Source of the DNA: an uncultured Nitrososphaerales archaeon | GTDB lineage: Archaea > Thermoproteota > Nitrososphaeria > Nitrososphaerales > Nitrososphaeraceae | Assembly: GCA_963695855.1 (NCBI GenBank) | Contig: CAVOHZ010000011.1 | Span: forward strand, 1 to 17,044 | Length of the DNA: 17,044 bases | Reading direction: 5' to 3' | Shown: one piece after another, positions 2,897-9,274 of the stretch | Layout of the letters: every line of letters starts with the position of its first letter | How positions within the stretch are numbered: the first letter of the stretch is position 1 | The notes under the pieces: model-generated | Told to the model about the DNA's origin: nothing | Database searches by the model: none | What the model saw: the letters and a program-made list of their open reading frames with translations, nothing else | Translations under genes and position numbers: made by a program

Positions 2897-3792
2897 CTAT
2901 AAACCACTCATAATTTGATTTATTAGTTTTAGTGCATTTTTAGCACTTTTTTCTTTATCTTTTATCTCCAACATGATATCTAAATCAACAGAAGTAATGA
3001 CGAGAACAAATTCCTTGAATTGTTTCATATCCAAAGTAGCAGAATGTTTTCCTTTTCTTTCATTTGGCTCCTGATTACTATAATCAATCATTATTATTCC
3101 ATCTCTATGATTATACCATGTATCGCTAGCCCTTTGCAAGGCATGAATTAATGACAAATTATCTCCAAAACACTTATGATGAAATGTGTCAAAAAGAATT
3201 GGTATATCTGTATTCGAGTGAATTTCTATACAATCATTCAAATTATAAAGATGATCGTCGTTTTCGAATACCAACCTTTTTTTTACTTTTTCAGAAAGCA
3301 AATTCTTGTAATTTGATATGAATTTTTTCTTTGAATCTTCTCTGTCTCCATAAACTCCTCCAACATGAATTTGAACTTTTGCTGAGGTATGAAGTCTCAT
3401 TAGATCCAGAACATCTGTATGATACTCTAGTTCTTTAATACTATTATTCACAATATCTGGATTTTTTGAATTTATGAGAACGAATTGGTCTGGATGCATA
3501 GATATTCTCATATCATTTTCTTTTATCAATCTGCCAATTTTTATAAAATCACATCTAAAAGATTTTTTCCAGTCGAATTTACATATTGAATGAGATGCGA
3601 ATGGAATTAAATCTGAACTTATTCTAAAAAACATGAGATTGTTTTCTATATTATACTTTAATATTTCAACAAGAGTGTCAAGATTGTATTATATGGATTG
3701 AATCAATCGTTCTTCAGTGTAAGAAGATAATCGAAATGTTGATACCGTTTTTTTCCAATTGAATAATTTATACACGGATAACCGATCTTCAT
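2897..3792 (-). pseudogene. uvsE: UV-damage endonuclease UvsE/UvdE, disrupted
   Basis: Motifs FFRISSDLIPFASH, RISMHPDQF, IHVGG, ENDD, FDTFHH, GKHS and DIMLEIKDKE. The true start is ATG 3792 (MKIGYPCIN). A 1-nt deletion in the 7-A run (3748-3754) and an in-frame TAA (3689-3691) precede the listed ORF 2897-3634. Repaired length is about 298 aa. Confidence 0.92.
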
Positions 3793-4004
3793 AAGCAATT
3801 ATTTAATACCATCGAGAAAATTAAGATTTTTTTACTTATTGAAATACTCAATTTATTGTAAATTAAAAATATCGGTTTTGATAAAAATATAGACAAATTT
3901 ACGCGACTTTTTTTCTTTTGAATTTGTTAATAATGTTATAATTAATCGACGTTTTTCTTTAGTTAAGTACAAAAATTTGGGTGATTGTATTTTCTAACAA
4001 GTTG

Positions 4005-4041
4005 GCACTATGTTAATTTTTTTACCTCTAGTTTTTATATA
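4005..4041 (+). promoter_or_regulatory. GCACTATGT motif (4005-4013) plus TATA box TTTATATA (4034-4041)
   Basis: Upstream of the ATG at 4061. The same 9-mer occurs twice upstream of the B12-binding gene. Confidence 0.5.
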
Positions 4042-4060
4042 AATAAGAAAAAGATATGAT

Positions 4061-4624
4061 ATGTTAAAACAAAAAGGATGCAATATGGTGATTCTTTATT
4101 GTACCATTGCTGGCTTCATTTCAGCTTGGACAATATCTGGATTACTTGTAATTGTAGATATTGTTTCAAATACTCCTGCAGATACATTCTTTTCGGTCAC
4201 AGGAGTATCAATTGGAATAGAAGATCCTGTTGTGGCTCAGTATATTGGTTTTGGATTACACGCGCTAACTGGAACTGCGGCTGGCAATATTTTTGGACAA
4301 GTAACATCCTTTTGGAATAAAGTATTTCCAACTGGCATCAGACGAGGGATACCGCTTGGAATAATTCAGGGAATAGCATTGTGGATTTTATTGTTCGTTC
4401 CTTTAGCTACTATGGCAATTCAAGCCAAACTTGATTCTCTTGTGACCATGGCCACAAATGAGAATTTCAAAAACATTGCATTTCATTTTGAAGGATGGTA
4501 TCTAGTCATCATAAGTGGATCATTGATATTTCATATAATGTAGACAGTTTTACTGGGCTTTATTGTTGGGAGTATGTCAGAACTTGATTTGTTTGTTCAC
4601 CCGACTTTCAATAAAAATGTATGA
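4061..4624 (+). pseudogene. Multi-pass membrane protein interrupted by TAG at 4541-4543 (listed ORF 4061-4543)
   Basis: About four hydrophobic helices, with intramembrane His in GFGLHALTG and LIFHIM. After the TAG the same frame continues the hydrophobic helix, TVLLGFIVGSMSELDLFVHPTFNKNV, to TGA at 4622-4624 (187 aa if read through). Confidence 0.7.
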
Positions 4625-4847: not shown

Positions 4848-6224
4848 TTGAAAAATAATCAAAATCAAGAGAAAAAATTACGTATTTTAGTAACAGGAGC
4901 AACTGGATTTATAGGTTCAAGGCTTACTAGAAGATTAATTGCCTTGGGAAAATATCATATTCGTTGCATGACTAGAAATCCAGATGAAATATACAAAAAG
5001 ATATTTGGGTTAAGTGAAAATATTATTGAGATAGTAAGGGTAGATGCTACCAAATATGAAGAAGTATTAAAAGCCTTAGAAGATATTGATGTGGTTTTTT
5101 ATTTAATTCATTCAATGGAAGGTACATCTTTAAAATGGAAAGAATTCTCGTACAAAGATAAATTAATAGCTGAAAATTTTGCTAAAGCTGCCTCAGAAAA
5201 AAGAGTTAAAAGGATAATATATTTAGGAGGTCTAATTAATGAAATTAATAATCTTTCCGAACATATGCGAAGTAGGAAGGAAGTTGGAGAAATTCTCAAA
5301 AAATCTACGACCAAAGTTACAGTATTACGTGCCGCAATAATTTTAGGAGCAGGAGGAGGATCGTTTCAAATGCTAAAATATCTAGTAGAAAGACTTCCAA
5401 TTATGGTGTGTCCCAGGTGGGTTCAAACCAGATCACAGCCAATAGCAGTTGATGATGTTGTAAACTATCTTGTGACTTGTTTGGAGGTTTCAGAAACACA
5501 AGGAAAAGACTTTGATATTGGAGGTCCAGAAATAGTCACCTATTTTGAGTTAATGAAAAGATATGCAAGCACATTCAATAAATCATTAAGAATACTAGTT
5601 ATACCTTTTTTAACTCCGAGATTATCTTCTTACTGGATAGACCTTGTCACGCCAGTTCAGGCCTCTTTAGCAAGACCATTGATTGATAGTTTGAAACATG
5701 AAGCCACAGTTAAGGATGAACAAATAAGAAAATTAATCCAATTTGATCTTTCTACTATTGAGCAAGCCATAAAAACGTCTAAAAAAGAATCTGAAATCAA
5801 ATCGAAAATTCTAAAAATAAATGAAAAAAGTTCCATTTCATTGAACAACAAAATACTAATTATATCACTTTTATTGTTGGCAGCAATTGGTTCAACATAT
5901 TATTTTTTAGATACACGACAAGATGTTTTTCGGCCATATTGGATCGTTTTAAGTTTTTTATGGTATTTTGGAATATTCTTTTCTATTTATTTTGTTAGAT
6001 ATGGCGCAAGGCTTGGATCTCTCATTGCAGGGACTTTAGGATGGATAACAATAACCTTTTGGTTATTAGATAACATTCGCTTGGTTTATGATACATCTAT
6101 TATAACCTCCTCACCATCAGACCTTATAATGACTATTAGGAATTTTCTAGGGGGTGTAATATCTATTTCGGTAATATTATCGTCTCATAATGTCTTTCAC
6201 AAGATAAGATTATATAAAATATGA
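4848..6224 (+). CDS. Atypical SDR / NAD(P)H-binding protein (YbjT-like) with a C-terminal ~4-TM domain
   Basis: ILVTGATGFIG Rossmann motif; family motifs YLIHSM, IIYLGGL, SEHMRSR, LRAAIILGAGGGSF and QPIAVDDV. Residues from about 335 onward are hydrophobic helices. TTG start. Confidence 0.88.
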   Translation: MKNNQNQEKKLRILVTGATGFIGSRLTRRLIALGKYHIRCMTRNPDEIYKKIFGLSENIIEIVRVDATKYEEVLKALEDIDVVFYLIHSMEGTSLKWKEFSYKDKLIAENFAKAASEKRVKRIIYLGGLINEINNLSEHMRSRKEVGEILKKSTTKVTVLRAAIILGAGGGSFQMLKYLVERLPIMVCPRWVQTRSQPIAVDDVVNYLVTCLEVSETQGKDFDIGGPEIVTYFELMKRYASTFNKSLRILVIPFLTPRLSSYWIDLVTPVQASLARPLIDSLKHEATVKDEQIRKLIQFDLSTIEQAIKTSKKESEIKSKILKINEKSSISLNNKILIISLLLLAAIGSTYYFLDTRQDVFRPYWIVLSFLWYFGIFFSIYFVRYGARLGSLIAGTLGWITITFWLLDNIRLVYDTSIITSSPSDLIMTIRNFLGGVISISVILSSHNVFHKIRLYKI

Positions 6225-6503: not shown

Positions 6504-7379
6504 TTAAACATTTATGTATTCATTAATATGGCGTATAAAATTACTTATTGATTCGTTATGCAAAATACTAATTTTGTTCTGTTTGTTTTGATTTTCTATC
6601 GCCTTGTCCCCTTTCAATGCAATGACCCCTGCTCCAGCAACTACTATGTTAGTTGGATATTTTTTATTTATTTCATTTATTAGTCTTATAGCGGTATTTT
6701 TATGTTCTGATAATGTAATGCATATTATTATTAAATTCGGGCGTGCTTCATTTACATATTCAATTATTGATTCGTTCGGAGCTGATGGAGATATATTATA
6801 AACGTGATATTTTTTTTCTAATAATAGTGATTCAAGTATCTCACACCCAATCTTGTGTATTTCTCCCTCTGGAGTACATAAAAGGACCTTTATCGGTTTT
6901 TTCTTTTCTGTGTCCAAACTATGAAACTTGTTATTTATTATACTTATTAGGTTCGAAGCTGCATTACTGCAAGCGTGTTCCGTGGCAACATCTAATTCTT
7001 CTTTCTCCCACAGGTTCCCTACCTTTTGCAACACAGGAATTAGAATAAATTCATAAAAATCAGTTAAATCAATATTCTTCGTAGAAGTAGAATAAATGTT
7101 TATTACTTTATTTATATCGTAATTAATCAGAGCTTCAAATAATCGATCTTGAAATATCCTTTCTGATTCTTTATCTCTTCCTTTATCACTAAATTTTCCA
7201 AAAAATGATATTACATTTTCTGTTTTGCGATATTCTTCCGGAATATCATCAATGGATAATTTAGAAATATTTCCTAAATATTTGACTGTTATTTGTTTAG
7301 GTTTTTTTTCTGTCCAGACATTTTTTACTAAATAAGCATAGGAATTATTTTTTATTTTTTTTACTCTGATATAGACCAT
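6504..7379 (-). CDS. Cobalamin-binding regulator, CarH/LitR-like sensor domains with a non-MerR N-terminal domain
   Basis: W-x9-EH (WEKEELDVATEH) in the cap domain. E-x-H-x2-G (EIHKIG)-x41-C-x-T-x25-AG matches the spacing of the B12-binding consensus D/E-x-H-x2-G-x41-S-x-T/V-x22-27-GG. Confidence 0.88.
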   Translation of the reverse strand: MVYIRVKKIKNNSYAYLVKNVWTEKKPKQITVKYLGNISKLSIDDIPEEYRKTENVISFFGKFSDKGRDKESERIFQDRLFEALINYDINKVINIYSTSTKNIDLTDFYEFILIPVLQKVGNLWEKEELDVATEHACSNAASNLISIINNKFHSLDTEKKKPIKVLLCTPEGEIHKIGCEILESLLLEKKYHVYNISPSAPNESIIEYVNEARPNLIIICITLSEHKNTAIRLINEINKKYPTNIVVAGAGVIALKGDKAIENQNKQNKISILHNESISNFIRHINEYINV

Positions 7380-7465
7380 TTTTACTCATCGTCGTACAAC
7401 ATGTACGTAGGGTAGCCGAAGTAATAGAATTTTTCATAATTGTATAAAGCGTTCATGCCTATTTA

Positions 7466-7499
7466 TACATAGTGCTAAATCTGTTACATAGTGCTAAAT
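7466..7499. repeat. Two perfect 15-bp direct repeats TACATAGTGCTAAAT (7466-7480, 7485-7499), period 19; candidate operator
   Basis: Read directly from the sequence. Lies upstream of the B12-binding gene and its minus-strand TTTATA (7448-7443). Confidence 0.85.
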
Positions 7500-7918: not shown

Positions 7919-9274
7919 TCAATATCTAATTCTAGAATATATATCTTCAATGTTCCATAAATGTTCTGGAACACCTTGAAGAGTTTTAGTTTTTCGTTTC
8001 TCTTTTGTTATATTTTTTAAAATAATTCCTTGCTTGGCCAGATCATGTACAATCATTGCAGCCATTGGTAATGCACCAGTTGCACCAGGTGAATTATAAT
8101 TCAGGATATGCAACGATGAGACATCCTTTAATAAGATAGTATCTGGTATAAATGAACCTTGATTATTTATTAGAACCAATCTTATTCCAGAAATTCCTCT
8201 ACTATTAAATTTCTTAGGATCTATCAATGGAAGAAATTGTTTTACTCTATTTATCATGGCTTTTTTAGATAATGAGCTATTTGTTTCTGTTAATATCAGA
8301 GAAAGAAATTCTTTCTCCATAACTAGTGACCAAAACCCCTTTTTTCTTACTACTTCTTGTATTCTTGGAAACACTTCTCTAAAATTTTTTCTTATGTTAT
8401 ATGCATAGGCTCCACAAACTGGTAGCGCATTTGGGCCGACCTCACAATGACCATCAATCCTTACAATCCAATGAGGATCAAGAAAAGGAAATTTCTTTTG
8501 TCTAGGCACCGAGTAAATACTACGAGACGTTAAAGATTCATATTCCTTAGGTGAAATCCAGTATTCTCCTCTAAAATATAAGTTAATAAAGCCTTTTCCA
8601 ATTCCGAAAGAATGTGCAATTTCAAGAGAATTTCCTCCAGCAGCGTTGACGATGTAGTCGGTCTGAATTGTTTTTTCCTTCCCTTTGTCGGATCGTATTG
8701 TTATTGTGTTTTGACCCTCCGACGACTTTATTCCTTTTACCTTGTGAGAAAAAAGGATATTCCCTCCTCTAAATAGATAATCTTCCTTTAAAAACTTAGT
8801 TAGGAGAGAGTAATCTACACTTGCATCTCTTCTGCAGTATATCGATGCCCTGCATTTGACATTAGGTTCAATTTTTTGTGTCTGATTGAAATCAAGAAAA
8901 GAAATATCATTCTCATCGAGCCCATTTTTTATTCCCCATTCTAAATATTTCCTTAGAGTATCTATGTCTTTATCTTCTTTTGCGATTTCTATTACTCCAT
9001 CGTTTTTAAAATAAATATTCTTAGACTGAGAATATTTTTCCCACATCTCGTATCCTAAGTAAGCAATTTTTCCAAAAATTTTCTTTTTTTCTGGATCATA
9101 TAAGAAAGGTGAATGAACTTTTCCAGTGTTTCTAGAACTTGTGTGGTATCCCACATCTTTTTCCTGTTCAATGATTATTGTATTAGCTTCACTATTTAAT
9201 GCCAAAAAATATCCAATAGAAACCCCTAATATTCCTCCACCAATGATTGCAATATTGTATTTTTTTTCTTCCAC
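7919..9274 (-). CDS. FAD-dependent oxidoreductase, L-2-hydroxyglutarate oxidase (LhgO)-like
   Basis: Motifs IAIIGGGILG, HTSSRNTGKVH, VNAAGG, FRGEY, FPFLDPH, VGPNA and NYNSPGATGA. Confidence 0.88.
   Translation of the reverse strand: MEEKKYNIAIIGGGILGVSIGYFLALNSEANTIIIEQEKDVGYHTSSRNTGKVHSPFLYDPEKKKIFGKIAYLGYEMWEKYSQSKNIYFKNDGVIEIAKEDKDIDTLRKYLEWGIKNGLDENDISFLDFNQTQKIEPNVKCRASIYCRRDASVDYSLLTKFLKEDYLFRGGNILFSHKVKGIKSSEGQNTITIRSDKGKEKTIQTDYIVNAAGGNSLEIAHSFGIGKGFINLYFRGEYWISPKEYESLTSRSIYSVPRQKKFPFLDPHWIVRIDGHCEVGPNALPVCGAYAYNIRKNFREVFPRIQEVVRKKGFWSLVMEKEFLSLILTETNSSLSKKAMINRVKQFLPLIDPKKFNSRGISGIRLVLINNQGSFIPDTILLKDVSSLHILNYNSPGATGALPMAAMIVHDLAKQGIILKNITKEKRKTKTLQGVPEHLWNIEDIYSRIRY

Follow-up and report, generated by a model that had tools for sequence, protein, structure and literature searches.

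Ammonia-oxidizing archaea drive nitrification in soils and oceans, and the literature that we found describes no light sensor for them. A contig of an uncultured Nitrososphaerales archaeon (assembly GCA_963695855.1, contig CAVOHZ010000011.1), which we analyzed over its full length of 17,044 nucleotides and refer to as the window, raised the question of whether such a sensor exists. An original prediction, made from the sequence of the window alone, had placed at positions 6504 to 7379 a protein that joins the cobalamin-binding domains of the photoreceptor CarH to an N-terminal domain resembling that of IS1634-family transposases. Is this protein a light-dependent regulator, and where on the DNA would it act? 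Our analysis indicated that the 291-amino-acid (aa) protein is probably an undescribed archaeal light switch. We considered it likely that the protein is a one-component, adenosylcobalamin (AdoCbl)-dependent, light-sensing transcription factor of ammonia-oxidizing archaea, which, by analogy with CarH, would act as a repressor in the dark.

The coordinates of the gene had been given without a strand. The list of open reading frames (ORFs) and the translation bore out a single ORF on the minus strand (6504 to 7379), which runs from an ATG to a stop codon at 6504 to 6506, and homologues carrying PF02607 and PF02310 supported its assignment as the regulator candidate. The window is the entire 17-kb contig C11 of a 3.55-Mb genome (G000) that consists of 11 contigs and has a G+C content of about 30%. 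The nearest database proteins carry the name Nitrososphaeraceae archaeon.

The cobalamin sensor, the N-terminal head, and the distribution of their fusion

Two Pfam domains were identified in the C-terminal part of the protein. The four-helix-bundle subdomain (B12-binding_2, residues 78 to 148, positions 6936 to 7148 on the minus strand) matched with an E value of 2.5e-11 and 44.1 bits (cutoff, 23), and its placement also agreed with motif positions and invariant residues. The Rossmann-type cobalamin-binding subdomain (B12-binding, residues 164 to 251, positions 6627 to 6890 on the minus strand) matched with an E value of 7.9e-9 and 35.8 bits (cutoff, 32.1), in agreement with the sequence and with fold matches.

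According to the available part of PMC8156234, the classic cobalamin motif and Wx9EH jointly define CarH homologues, and Wx9EH is absent from MetH. Counting on the translated sequence, we found the first hallmark as W124-x9-E134-H135 (codons at 7008 to 7010 and 6975 to 6980, minus strand), which matches Wx9EH. The second was found in the Rossmann-type subdomain as E173-I-H175-K-I-G178-x41-C220-I-T222-x25-A248-G249, with the exact spacing of E/DxHxxG-x41-SxV/T-x22-27-GG; its elements are ExH175xxG, C220xT, and A248G249. Thus, both hallmarks stood at the predicted spacings, and the predicted Ser-to-Cys and Gly-to-Ala deviations were confirmed as C220 and A248 (AG in place of GG). When 37 family members were aligned, W124, E134, H135, G172, and H175 proved invariant in all of them. 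Position 220 was Ser and position 248 was Gly in at least 90% of the aligned rows (family consensus, S and GG), so C220 and A248 appear peculiar to this copy and its closest relatives. The light-responsive cobalamin-binding domain signature given in the available part of PMC11796333 consists of GxxW, EH, GxxH, and GxxxP, and three of these four SignatureFinder elements were present here (G121xxW124, E134H135, and G172xxH175). In some orthologues, such as those of loci L028 and L029, the GxxxP position reads GTSxP.

Searches of solved structures pointed in the same direction. The top sequence match in PDB, with an E value of 3.9e-8, was 8jbs, which is CtMerR of Chloracidobacterium thermophilum (8JBS/8JBT); CarH entries of Thermus thermophilus (TtCarH) followed at about 5e-6. 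The AlphaFold2 model of the whole protein had a mean predicted local distance difference test (pLDDT) score of 88.0 and a predicted template modeling (pTM) score of 0.73. In a Foldseek search with this model, 8jbs was again the best match (E = 4e-11, TMt 0.77), and the matches included TtCarH 5c8a (TMt 0.82) and the photocobilin 8j2w. All of ranks 1 to 33 were AdoCbl photoreceptor domains; the first non-photoreceptor, a trimethylamine corrinoid protein, stood at rank 34. The invariant hallmarks, the best PDB sequence matches, and the best fold matches therefore supported the predicted CarH-type sensor.

Other cobalamin-binding proteins were considered as well. In NCBIfam, corrinoid-protein models were the top matches at 45 and 40 bits, both below threshold. 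A methyltransferase corrinoid protein (MtbC/MttC/MtaC) was rejected, as its best score was 45.4 bits against a cutoff of 215.3, and no methyltransferase was recognized among the annotated neighbors. On the subthreshold NCBIfam scores and the gene context, we rejected the corrinoid-protein and MetH-like readings. As for the cofactor, genes for a PduO-type adenosyltransferase (179 bits) and a methylmalonyl-CoA mutase (724 bits) are present in the genome, so this archaeon makes and uses AdoCbl.

The N-terminal domain (residues 1 to 66, positions 7182 to 7379, minus strand), which we call the head, was delimited using AlphaFold2 models, invariant residues, and the IS1634 profile match described below. 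Both models predicted strands at residues 2 to 9, 12 to 22, and 27 to 37, followed by an IPEEYR turn and a helix at residues 54 to 63. The β-sheet core at residues 2 to 37 corresponds to positions 7269 to 7376 on the minus strand. The pLDDT scores of the head block were 87 to 91 in the whole-protein model, and the domain-only model had a mean pLDDT of 85.8, with blocks of 86 to 91 over residues 1 to 60. Residues 1 to 40 contain 10 Lys or Arg residues and one Asp or Glu residue; K7, Y14, V18, W22, Q29, Y34, L35, and G36 are invariant. The basic, three-stranded N terminus of the original prediction was thus recovered in the models and the charge count. Pfam yielded no match to residues 1 to 77 at E values up to 1, MerR included, and NCBIfam yielded none to the same residues. 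Together with the three predicted strands, the Pfam result upheld the view that the head is not a MerR winged helix-turn-helix (HTH) domain. When 31 head sequences were scanned against Pfam at E ≤ 10, no family was shared by more than two members.

A profile of the head (residues 1 to 66) was searched against 1.84 billion representative proteins, which produced 975 matches at E ≤ 1e-3, of which 124 reached E ≤ 1e-10. Among them was a 526-aa DDE transposase (P0246; E = 1.1e-10) that scored 215.4 bits with the NCBIfam IS1634 model NF033559 (cutoff, 100) and has one homologue named Thermoplasmatota transposase. In a local search of the P0246 family, a match to the head profile with E < 1e-3 was obtained for 22 of 25 proteins, in every case at the extreme N terminus. 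These two results sustained the IS1634 likeness of the original prediction, and judging by sequence comparison, the first 40 or so residues of the regulator candidate are homologous to the IS1634 transposase N terminus; the DDE catalytic domain is absent from the regulator. We found no paper on the function of the IS1634 transposase N terminus.

The matches listed also included a 362-aa AbiEii nucleotidyltransferase protein of a Diapherotrites archaeon, a 172-aa protein with an HNH-like nuclease motif, and a Pfam-less family of 160- to 215-aa proteins with an uncharacterized C-terminal domain of about 130 aa. Head fusions other than the regulator include P0255, P0251, and P0225/P0233/P0241. 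IS1634 transposases, AbiEii proteins, and HNH-like proteins all act on nucleic acids, and this company favors DNA binding by the head. Another match, the 338-aa protein P0266, is an Ala/Arg/Pro-rich fusion of the head to a cobalamin domain with a long Pro/Arg/Ala-rich tail. Because this version exists, the fusion may extend beyond the ammonia oxidizers.

How widely is the fusion itself conserved? With E ≤ 0.001 as the limit, a word-indexed search returned 798 homologues. The best 120 of these were 289 to 328 aa long and all contained PF02607 and PF02310; inspection by eye found the head in every one. Automatic JGI names for the homologues were 'MerR family ... light-induced transcriptional regulator' or 'methanogenic corrinoid protein MtbC1', and NCBI names were 'cobalamin-dependent protein' and similar. 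Across the class, 76 of 201 genomes had a match at E ≤ 1e-10, with alignments that begin at residue 1. Apart from two weak ones, the matches were confined to three families of one order, where they occurred in 8 of 14 (f1), 61 of 114 (f2), and 4 of 5 (f3) genomes. The entire fusion is conserved across one archaeal order. Starting from the single protein, a search for related loci brought up just two relatives, each 92% identical, along with two proteins from bacteria, which matched in the cobalamin domain only. The head was present in 33 of 36 loci examined; the three headless loci were those of an 849-aa ORF in the window's genome, which is unrelated, and of the two bacterial cobalamin-domain-only proteins.

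The genome of the window contains a second copy of the gene on contig C3 (355879 to 356706), with 45% identity, and no third head-bearing ORF was found in the genome (next best E value, 0.11). In a midpoint-rooted FastTree phylogeny of 37 members, read without consideration of support values, the clade of the window copy and the clade of this paralogue were sisters inside the family f1 radiation. Some genomes of the order carried, besides a full regulator, short frames that matched the head profile at positions 2 to 51 or 1 to 63 (G229:C26, G236:C10 [138 aa], G268:C41 [66 aa], and G171:C1:1044252 [79 aa]).

Paired direct repeats in the promoters of the regulator and neighboring genes

We identified a candidate operator at positions 7460 to 7497 (minus strand) upstream of the gene. 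It contains two perfect direct repeats, TTAGCACTA, at 7489 to 7497 and 7470 to 7478, with a start-to-start distance of 19 bp. The identity extends to 15 bp, ATTTAGCACTATGTA, which occurs twice within 7470 to 7497. The TATA box, TATAAATA (7460 to 7467), adjoins the second repeat and starts 88 nt upstream of the ATG. In most orthologues, the ATG lies about 30 nt after the TATA box, compared to 88 nt in the window copy. The window leader (7380 to 7467, minus strand) contains a short upstream ORF that runs from 3 nt past the TATA box to 4 nt before the main ATG; in the 90%-identical relatives P0002 and P0003, a similar leader stretch was fused in frame by gene callers to give 315-aa proteins.

The arrangement recurred in related loci. 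Of 33 loci, 25 had a pair with up to 3 mismatches in 18 positions within 300 nt upstream of the regulator gene. In five of the remaining eight, the sequence upstream looked coding, as judged by eye, and in one of these loci (G036) an exact pair stood before the upstream gene of cluster C1. Across loci, the spacing was 18 to 20 bp, typically 19; the second repeat abutted the TATA box, and this proximal repeat stopped 1 to 3 nt before it. The repeat variants were TTAGCACTA, TTGGCACTA, and TTATCACTA, and arrays of three repeats were present in, for example, L056, L091, L116, and L118.

We also asked how specific the repeats were to this gene family. In the genome of the window, 16 pairs with up to 3 mismatches were found in 7,097,188 positions. 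The two best pairs belonged to the two paralogues, and the window operator was the best of the 16, with the top position weight matrix (PWM) score of 34.1. The lone 9-mer occurred 32 times in the genome versus about 44 expected by a hand estimate from base composition, so it is not a general promoter element. Across 121 genomes of the order, 21 contained the exact pattern TTRGCACTA-N9-11-TTRKCAYTA, at 25 places in total, compared to 2 places for the backwards control. The head profile matched in 36 of those 121 genomes. The exact pattern was present in 21 of the 36 head-bearing genomes, compared to none of the 85 genomes without the head. One of the 21 pattern-bearing genomes, G032, has only a broken regulator gene. 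In this genome (G032:C1:1500198-1500450, locus L064), a TAA stop stands inside the head match and what remains is an ORF of 87 aa; even so, the locus has kept two exact repeat pairs, one before the remnant and one before the C1 gene.

A second, weaker operator-like pair, TTGGCACTA-N11-TTACCTCTA, lies at 4002 to 4044 on the plus strand, has 3 mismatches and a spacing of 20, and is followed by the TATA-like sequence TTTTTATATAAAT. The pair itself (4002 to 4030) ends 30 nt upstream of an ATG at 4061, where the gene for a small, 160-aa membrane protein begins (cluster C3, 4061 to 4543, plus strand; no family match). The first 440 positions of contig C1 of the same genome form a reversed repeat of window positions 4000 to 4440, which covers the promoter and the first 125 codons of this membrane-protein gene, including an identical repeat pair. 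Either an assembly repeat or a genuine duplication at the end of a contig would account for this. A PWM scan also found a strong half-site with a TATA-like run on contig C3 of G000 (356920 to 356951, plus strand); it faces a 114-aa gene (cluster C22) that is divergent from the paralogue, and a gene of the C22 family is preceded by a pair in L039. Two other PWM sites (C8:461912 and C10:1719579; score, at least 16) were rejected as targets, as no ORF of at least 60 aa follows within 300 nt downstream.

To define the neighborhood, we surveyed about 6 kb on either side of the gene in 62 loci, using tblastn with 14 query families. The most frequent neighbors were a secreted protein of about 300 aa (cluster C1; 41 loci) and an NAD(P)-binding membrane protein (cluster C2; 38 loci), followed by DUF1722 (27 loci), a CrtI/HpnE-like flavin adenine dinucleotide (FAD) oxidoreductase and a 126-aa protein of cluster C4 (19 loci each), photolyase (10 loci), the C3 membrane protein (7 loci), a DUF6789-like membrane protein (5 loci), and pyrimidine-dimer glycosylase (4 loci). 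The UV-damage endonuclease UvdE was found in one locus, the window. The 62 loci (1.51 million positions) contained 162 repeat pairs, with triple arrays counted twice, versus about 3.4 expected at the rate of the window's own genome.

The ORF directly after a pair was the regulator at 59 sites (50 loci), the C1 gene at 38 sites (35 loci), the C2 gene at 14 sites (13 loci), the CrtI-like oxidase at 13 sites (13 loci), the C3 gene at 2 sites (2 loci), and C22 at 1 site (1 locus). Other ORFs followed the pair at 23 sites (19 loci), and no ORF followed it at 12 sites (10 loci). In addition, for 23 of the 27 DUF1722 genes, a pair oriented toward the divergent C1 gene lies 9 to 38 nt upstream of the DUF1722 start. 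As a separate observation, a conserved, unannotated protein of 61 to 66 aa (start MAEEQEWANLLAEIF...) stands right behind a pair and TATA box in L094, L101, L103, and L113. These results showed that a new direct-repeat pair, TTAGCACTA, abuts the TATA box of the regulator gene and also precedes a small set of neighboring genes.

In the window, the NAD(P)-binding protein of cluster C2 (458 aa, atypical SDR/NmrA-like, with a C-terminal membrane region) is encoded at 4848 to 6224 on the plus strand. The paralogue also adjoins a C3-C2 gene pair and, in addition, lies 5 kb from a photolyase gene on contig C3. The uvdE gene (2897 to 3634, minus strand; Pfam UvdE, E = 6e-51) is divergent from the gene at 4061, and an FAD oxidoreductase is encoded at 7919 to 9274. 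An IS5-like DDE transposase gene that runs off the contig end (3 to 740, minus strand; Pfam DDE_Tnp_1_5 and DDE_Tnp_1) lacks an IS1634-type head. Further window genes encode a kinase, an archaeal CCA-adding enzyme, a LigT-like enzyme, and an iron alcohol dehydrogenase.

The proposed switch and alternative readings

The domain makeup, its conservation, and the cis-element and its distribution were established by computation. The conserved repeats in the regulator's own promoter and in neighboring promoters strongly suggest that the head is a DNA-binding output. By analogy with CarH, we infer which cofactor is bound, how it responds to light, that the head recognizes DNA, and in which direction transcription is regulated, as follows. 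In the dark, the C-terminal CarH-type module would bind AdoCbl, with H175 as the lower ligand and W124, E134, and H135 capping the adenosyl group. Cofactor binding would lead to head-to-tail oligomerization, and the oligomer would set two or three basic β-sheet heads on the tandem TTAGCACTA repeats with their 19-bp spacing. The heads would lie on one face of the DNA, as 19 bp is slightly under two helical turns. The oligomer would then cover the B recognition element (BRE) and TATA region, keep out transcription factor B (TFB) and the TATA-binding protein (TBP), and repress transcription. The BRE is expected just upstream of the TATA box, and exclusion of TFB and TBP would follow from the placement of the proximal repeat, which abuts the TATA box at that position. 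Light would break the Co-C bond, the oligomer would dissociate, and the promoters would open. The predicted targets in the window are the regulator itself, the small membrane protein, and the NAD(P)-binding membrane protein; in relatives, they are the secreted protein of about 300 aa, the CrtI-like FAD oxidoreductase, and a DUF1722-photolyase operon.

Folding two copies of residues 66 to 291 with no cofactor modeled gave a score of 0.63, versus 0.01 for the best of three controls. As a rough guide only, because our own alignment was used, this mark was reached by 20 of 30 proteins with solved homodimer structures and by 1 of 23 that were solved as single chains. At least 94% of the contacts agreed between the two-copy runs, and the partner pLDDT was at least 84. 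The predicted interface was head to tail, with bundle residues 130 to 155 against Rossmann residues 193 to 208 of the other copy, and it contained the invariant residues N139 and P201 and the nearly invariant N195. The score may reflect likeness to CarH rather than binding, because CarH assemblies have already been solved.

The closest functional models are CarH and class I LitR (T. thermophilus 5C8A/5C8D/5C8E and Myxococcus and Bacillus homologues), which have the same sensor, made of a four-helix bundle plus a Rossmann fold. The likeness extends to Wx9EH and ExHxxG...SxT...GG, to the predicted head-to-tail dimer, and to an N-terminal head joined by a linker, and the predicted target consists of tandem direct repeats in the regulator's own promoter, as described for CarH in the available part of PMC8156234. 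In contrast to the MerR winged helix of CarH, the head here is a three-stranded β-sheet common to IS1634 transposases, and the 9-bp cores are spaced by 19 bp, whereas CarH has adjacent 11-bp repeats. The archaeal TATA/BRE promoter, the lack of a His beside the Trp, an identity of about 19 to 20%, and predicted targets other than carotenoid genes also set the regulator apart from CarH. CtMerR, an AdoCbl tetramer that responds experimentally to green light (8jbs is the dark-state tetramer), as reported in the available part of PMC11796333, has a MerR-type head and an intact GxxxP, unlike the protein studied here. The same paper reports, for CtMerR and TtCarH loaded with AdoCbl, absorbance at about 540 nm with a shoulder at 560 nm and a new peak near 356 nm upon photoconversion by 530-nm light. 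Photocobilins and multidomain B12 photoreceptors (8J2W; PMC10979010 and PMC11796333, in the parts available) share the cobalamin module and have varied fused outputs. In the available main text of PMC11796333, these outputs are HTH, diguanylate cyclase (DGC), biliverdin-binding, GAF, MEDS, ANTAR, and similar domains, with no mention of a transposase-like β head or of archaea; members of our family may be among the 1561 sequences mined there. In the library that we searched, we found no paper that links CarH-type proteins to these archaea.

Several results weigh against the light-switch reading. In the sensor, C220 and A248 depart from the canonical cobalamin motif, the GxxxP element is replaced by S197-P-S-A-P201, and E125 stands at the position of TtCarH H132, the His beside the Trp that, according to the available part of PMC8156234, becomes the upper ligand after photolysis. 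Every NCBIfam score was far under its cutoff; the CarH model scored 39.6 bits against 400, and its match spanned residues 77 to 226 only. For the head, fold searches with the head-only model found 0 matches at E ≤ 1e-3 in PDB with Foldseek and 0 at E ≤ 1e-3 among the viral folds of BFVD. The best of 48,161 chains in VIA-align was a ribosomal protein with a Z score of 4.2, and an integrase arm domain (3jtz) ranked 44th with a Z score of 2.8; an ESM Atlas look-up of residues 1 to 66 gave a best score of 0.77, which is under the useful level. The head may nevertheless have an integrase-arm or AP2-like fold. With no convincing match to a solved or viral fold, it is genomic context that points to DNA binding by the head.

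Other such points concern the repeats and the regulon. The repeat consensus came from sequences upstream of the regulator itself, 15 of the 36 head-bearing genomes have no match to the exact pattern, and the locus counts overstate independence because the genomes are relatives with conserved gene order. A pair within 400 nt upstream was found for none of the 10 photolyase genes and none of the 4 pyrimidine-dimer glycosylase genes, so their membership in the regulon depends on inferred operons; photolyase lies behind DUF1722 in the same direction in 5 of the 10 photolyase loci and behind the regulator in 1. The start of the window's uvdE gene is 368 nt from the nearest pair. A search for transcript data brought up 6 sequencing runs, of which the only RNA-type ones contained 0.06 of the sampled words. 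Finally, the BRE/TATA site fits repression, and activation is also possible.

Could the protein answer to the presence or form of cobalamin, with light being physiologically irrelevant? The cobalamin-binding fold is common to non-photic corrinoid proteins, whose NCBIfam models rank top here, though below threshold, and the host is a soil archaeon that both makes and uses B12. The Cys and Ala residues in the canonical motif and the missing equivalent of TtCarH H132 would suit such a sensor as well. However, the adenosyl-capping Wx9EH is invariant, and the available part of PMC8156234 treats this motif as defining CarH homologues and absent from MetH. Moreover, the genes preceded by pairs matched only the regulator, C1, C2, the CrtI-like oxidase, C3, and C22 among the 14 query families. 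The neighbors that we identified included no gene for the biosynthesis or transport of cobalamin, although the loci were not searched specifically for such genes; the genes that stand near the sites encode photolyase, DUF1722, pyrimidine-dimer glycosylase, and oxidoreductases. We therefore regarded a sensor of cobalamin availability as unlikely. A change of sign alone, in which the dark or light form on the repeats recruits TFB and TBP and activates transcription from the same sites with the same sensor, appeared quite unlikely. The repeats are upstream rather than downstream of the TATA box, and there are archaeal activators that bind immediately upstream of the BRE; against this, the proximal repeat ends 1 to 3 nt before the TATA box and thereby covers the expected BRE position. 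In addition, all characterized CarH-type proteins are dark-state repressors, as stated in the available part of PMC8156234.

It is also conceivable, though in our judgment highly unlikely, that the protein does not bind DNA at all. In that case, another factor would read the repeats, and the head would make protein-protein contacts in the manner of AerR/PpaA-type antirepressors. Antirepressors that bind B12 and lack a DNA-binding domain are known (PMC9144470, in the part available), and no solved DNA-binding fold matched the head. Yet the exact pattern was confined to head-bearing genomes (21 of 36 versus 0 of 85), and the pair was present in the gene's own promoter in most loci. In 22 clustered loci, the only recurring candidate regulator recognized was a TFB paralogue (3 of 22), several recurring clusters lacking a family assignment. 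The head is also strongly basic and is placed where transposases would carry their end-binding domains. On balance, these considerations left the light-sensing dark repressor as our preferred reading.

Implications for ammonia-oxidizing archaea

We think it reasonably probable that the regulator is the first photoreceptor-transcription factor of ammonia-oxidizing archaea and among the first B12-based ones in Archaea, with a β-sheet head that represents a new class of DNA-binding domain, shared with IS1634 transposases and perhaps exapted from them, and that it controls a compact light- and UV-protection regulon, comprising photolyase, DUF1722, oxidoreductases, and envelope proteins, via 19-bp-spaced repeats at the BRE/TATA region. 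The window adds a soil genome with two diverged copies, each of which has its own operator and its own C3-C2 gene pair. The window copy is distinctive in its altered cobalamin motif (Cys220 and Ala248) and its unusually long leader.

If this reading is correct, it would give a function to the uncurated small domain that fronts IS1634 transposases, and it would provide a compact, non-HTH output for green-light optogenetic parts. It would also name genes that are expected to respond to light. Light reportedly inhibits ammonia-oxidizing archaea (Merbt et al. 2012, as cited in the available part of PMC9891703). A B12-based switch would tie the archaeon's own B12 production to light perception, and it would offer a molecular way into the question of how these nitrifiers, which are photoinhibited and produce B12, sense light.

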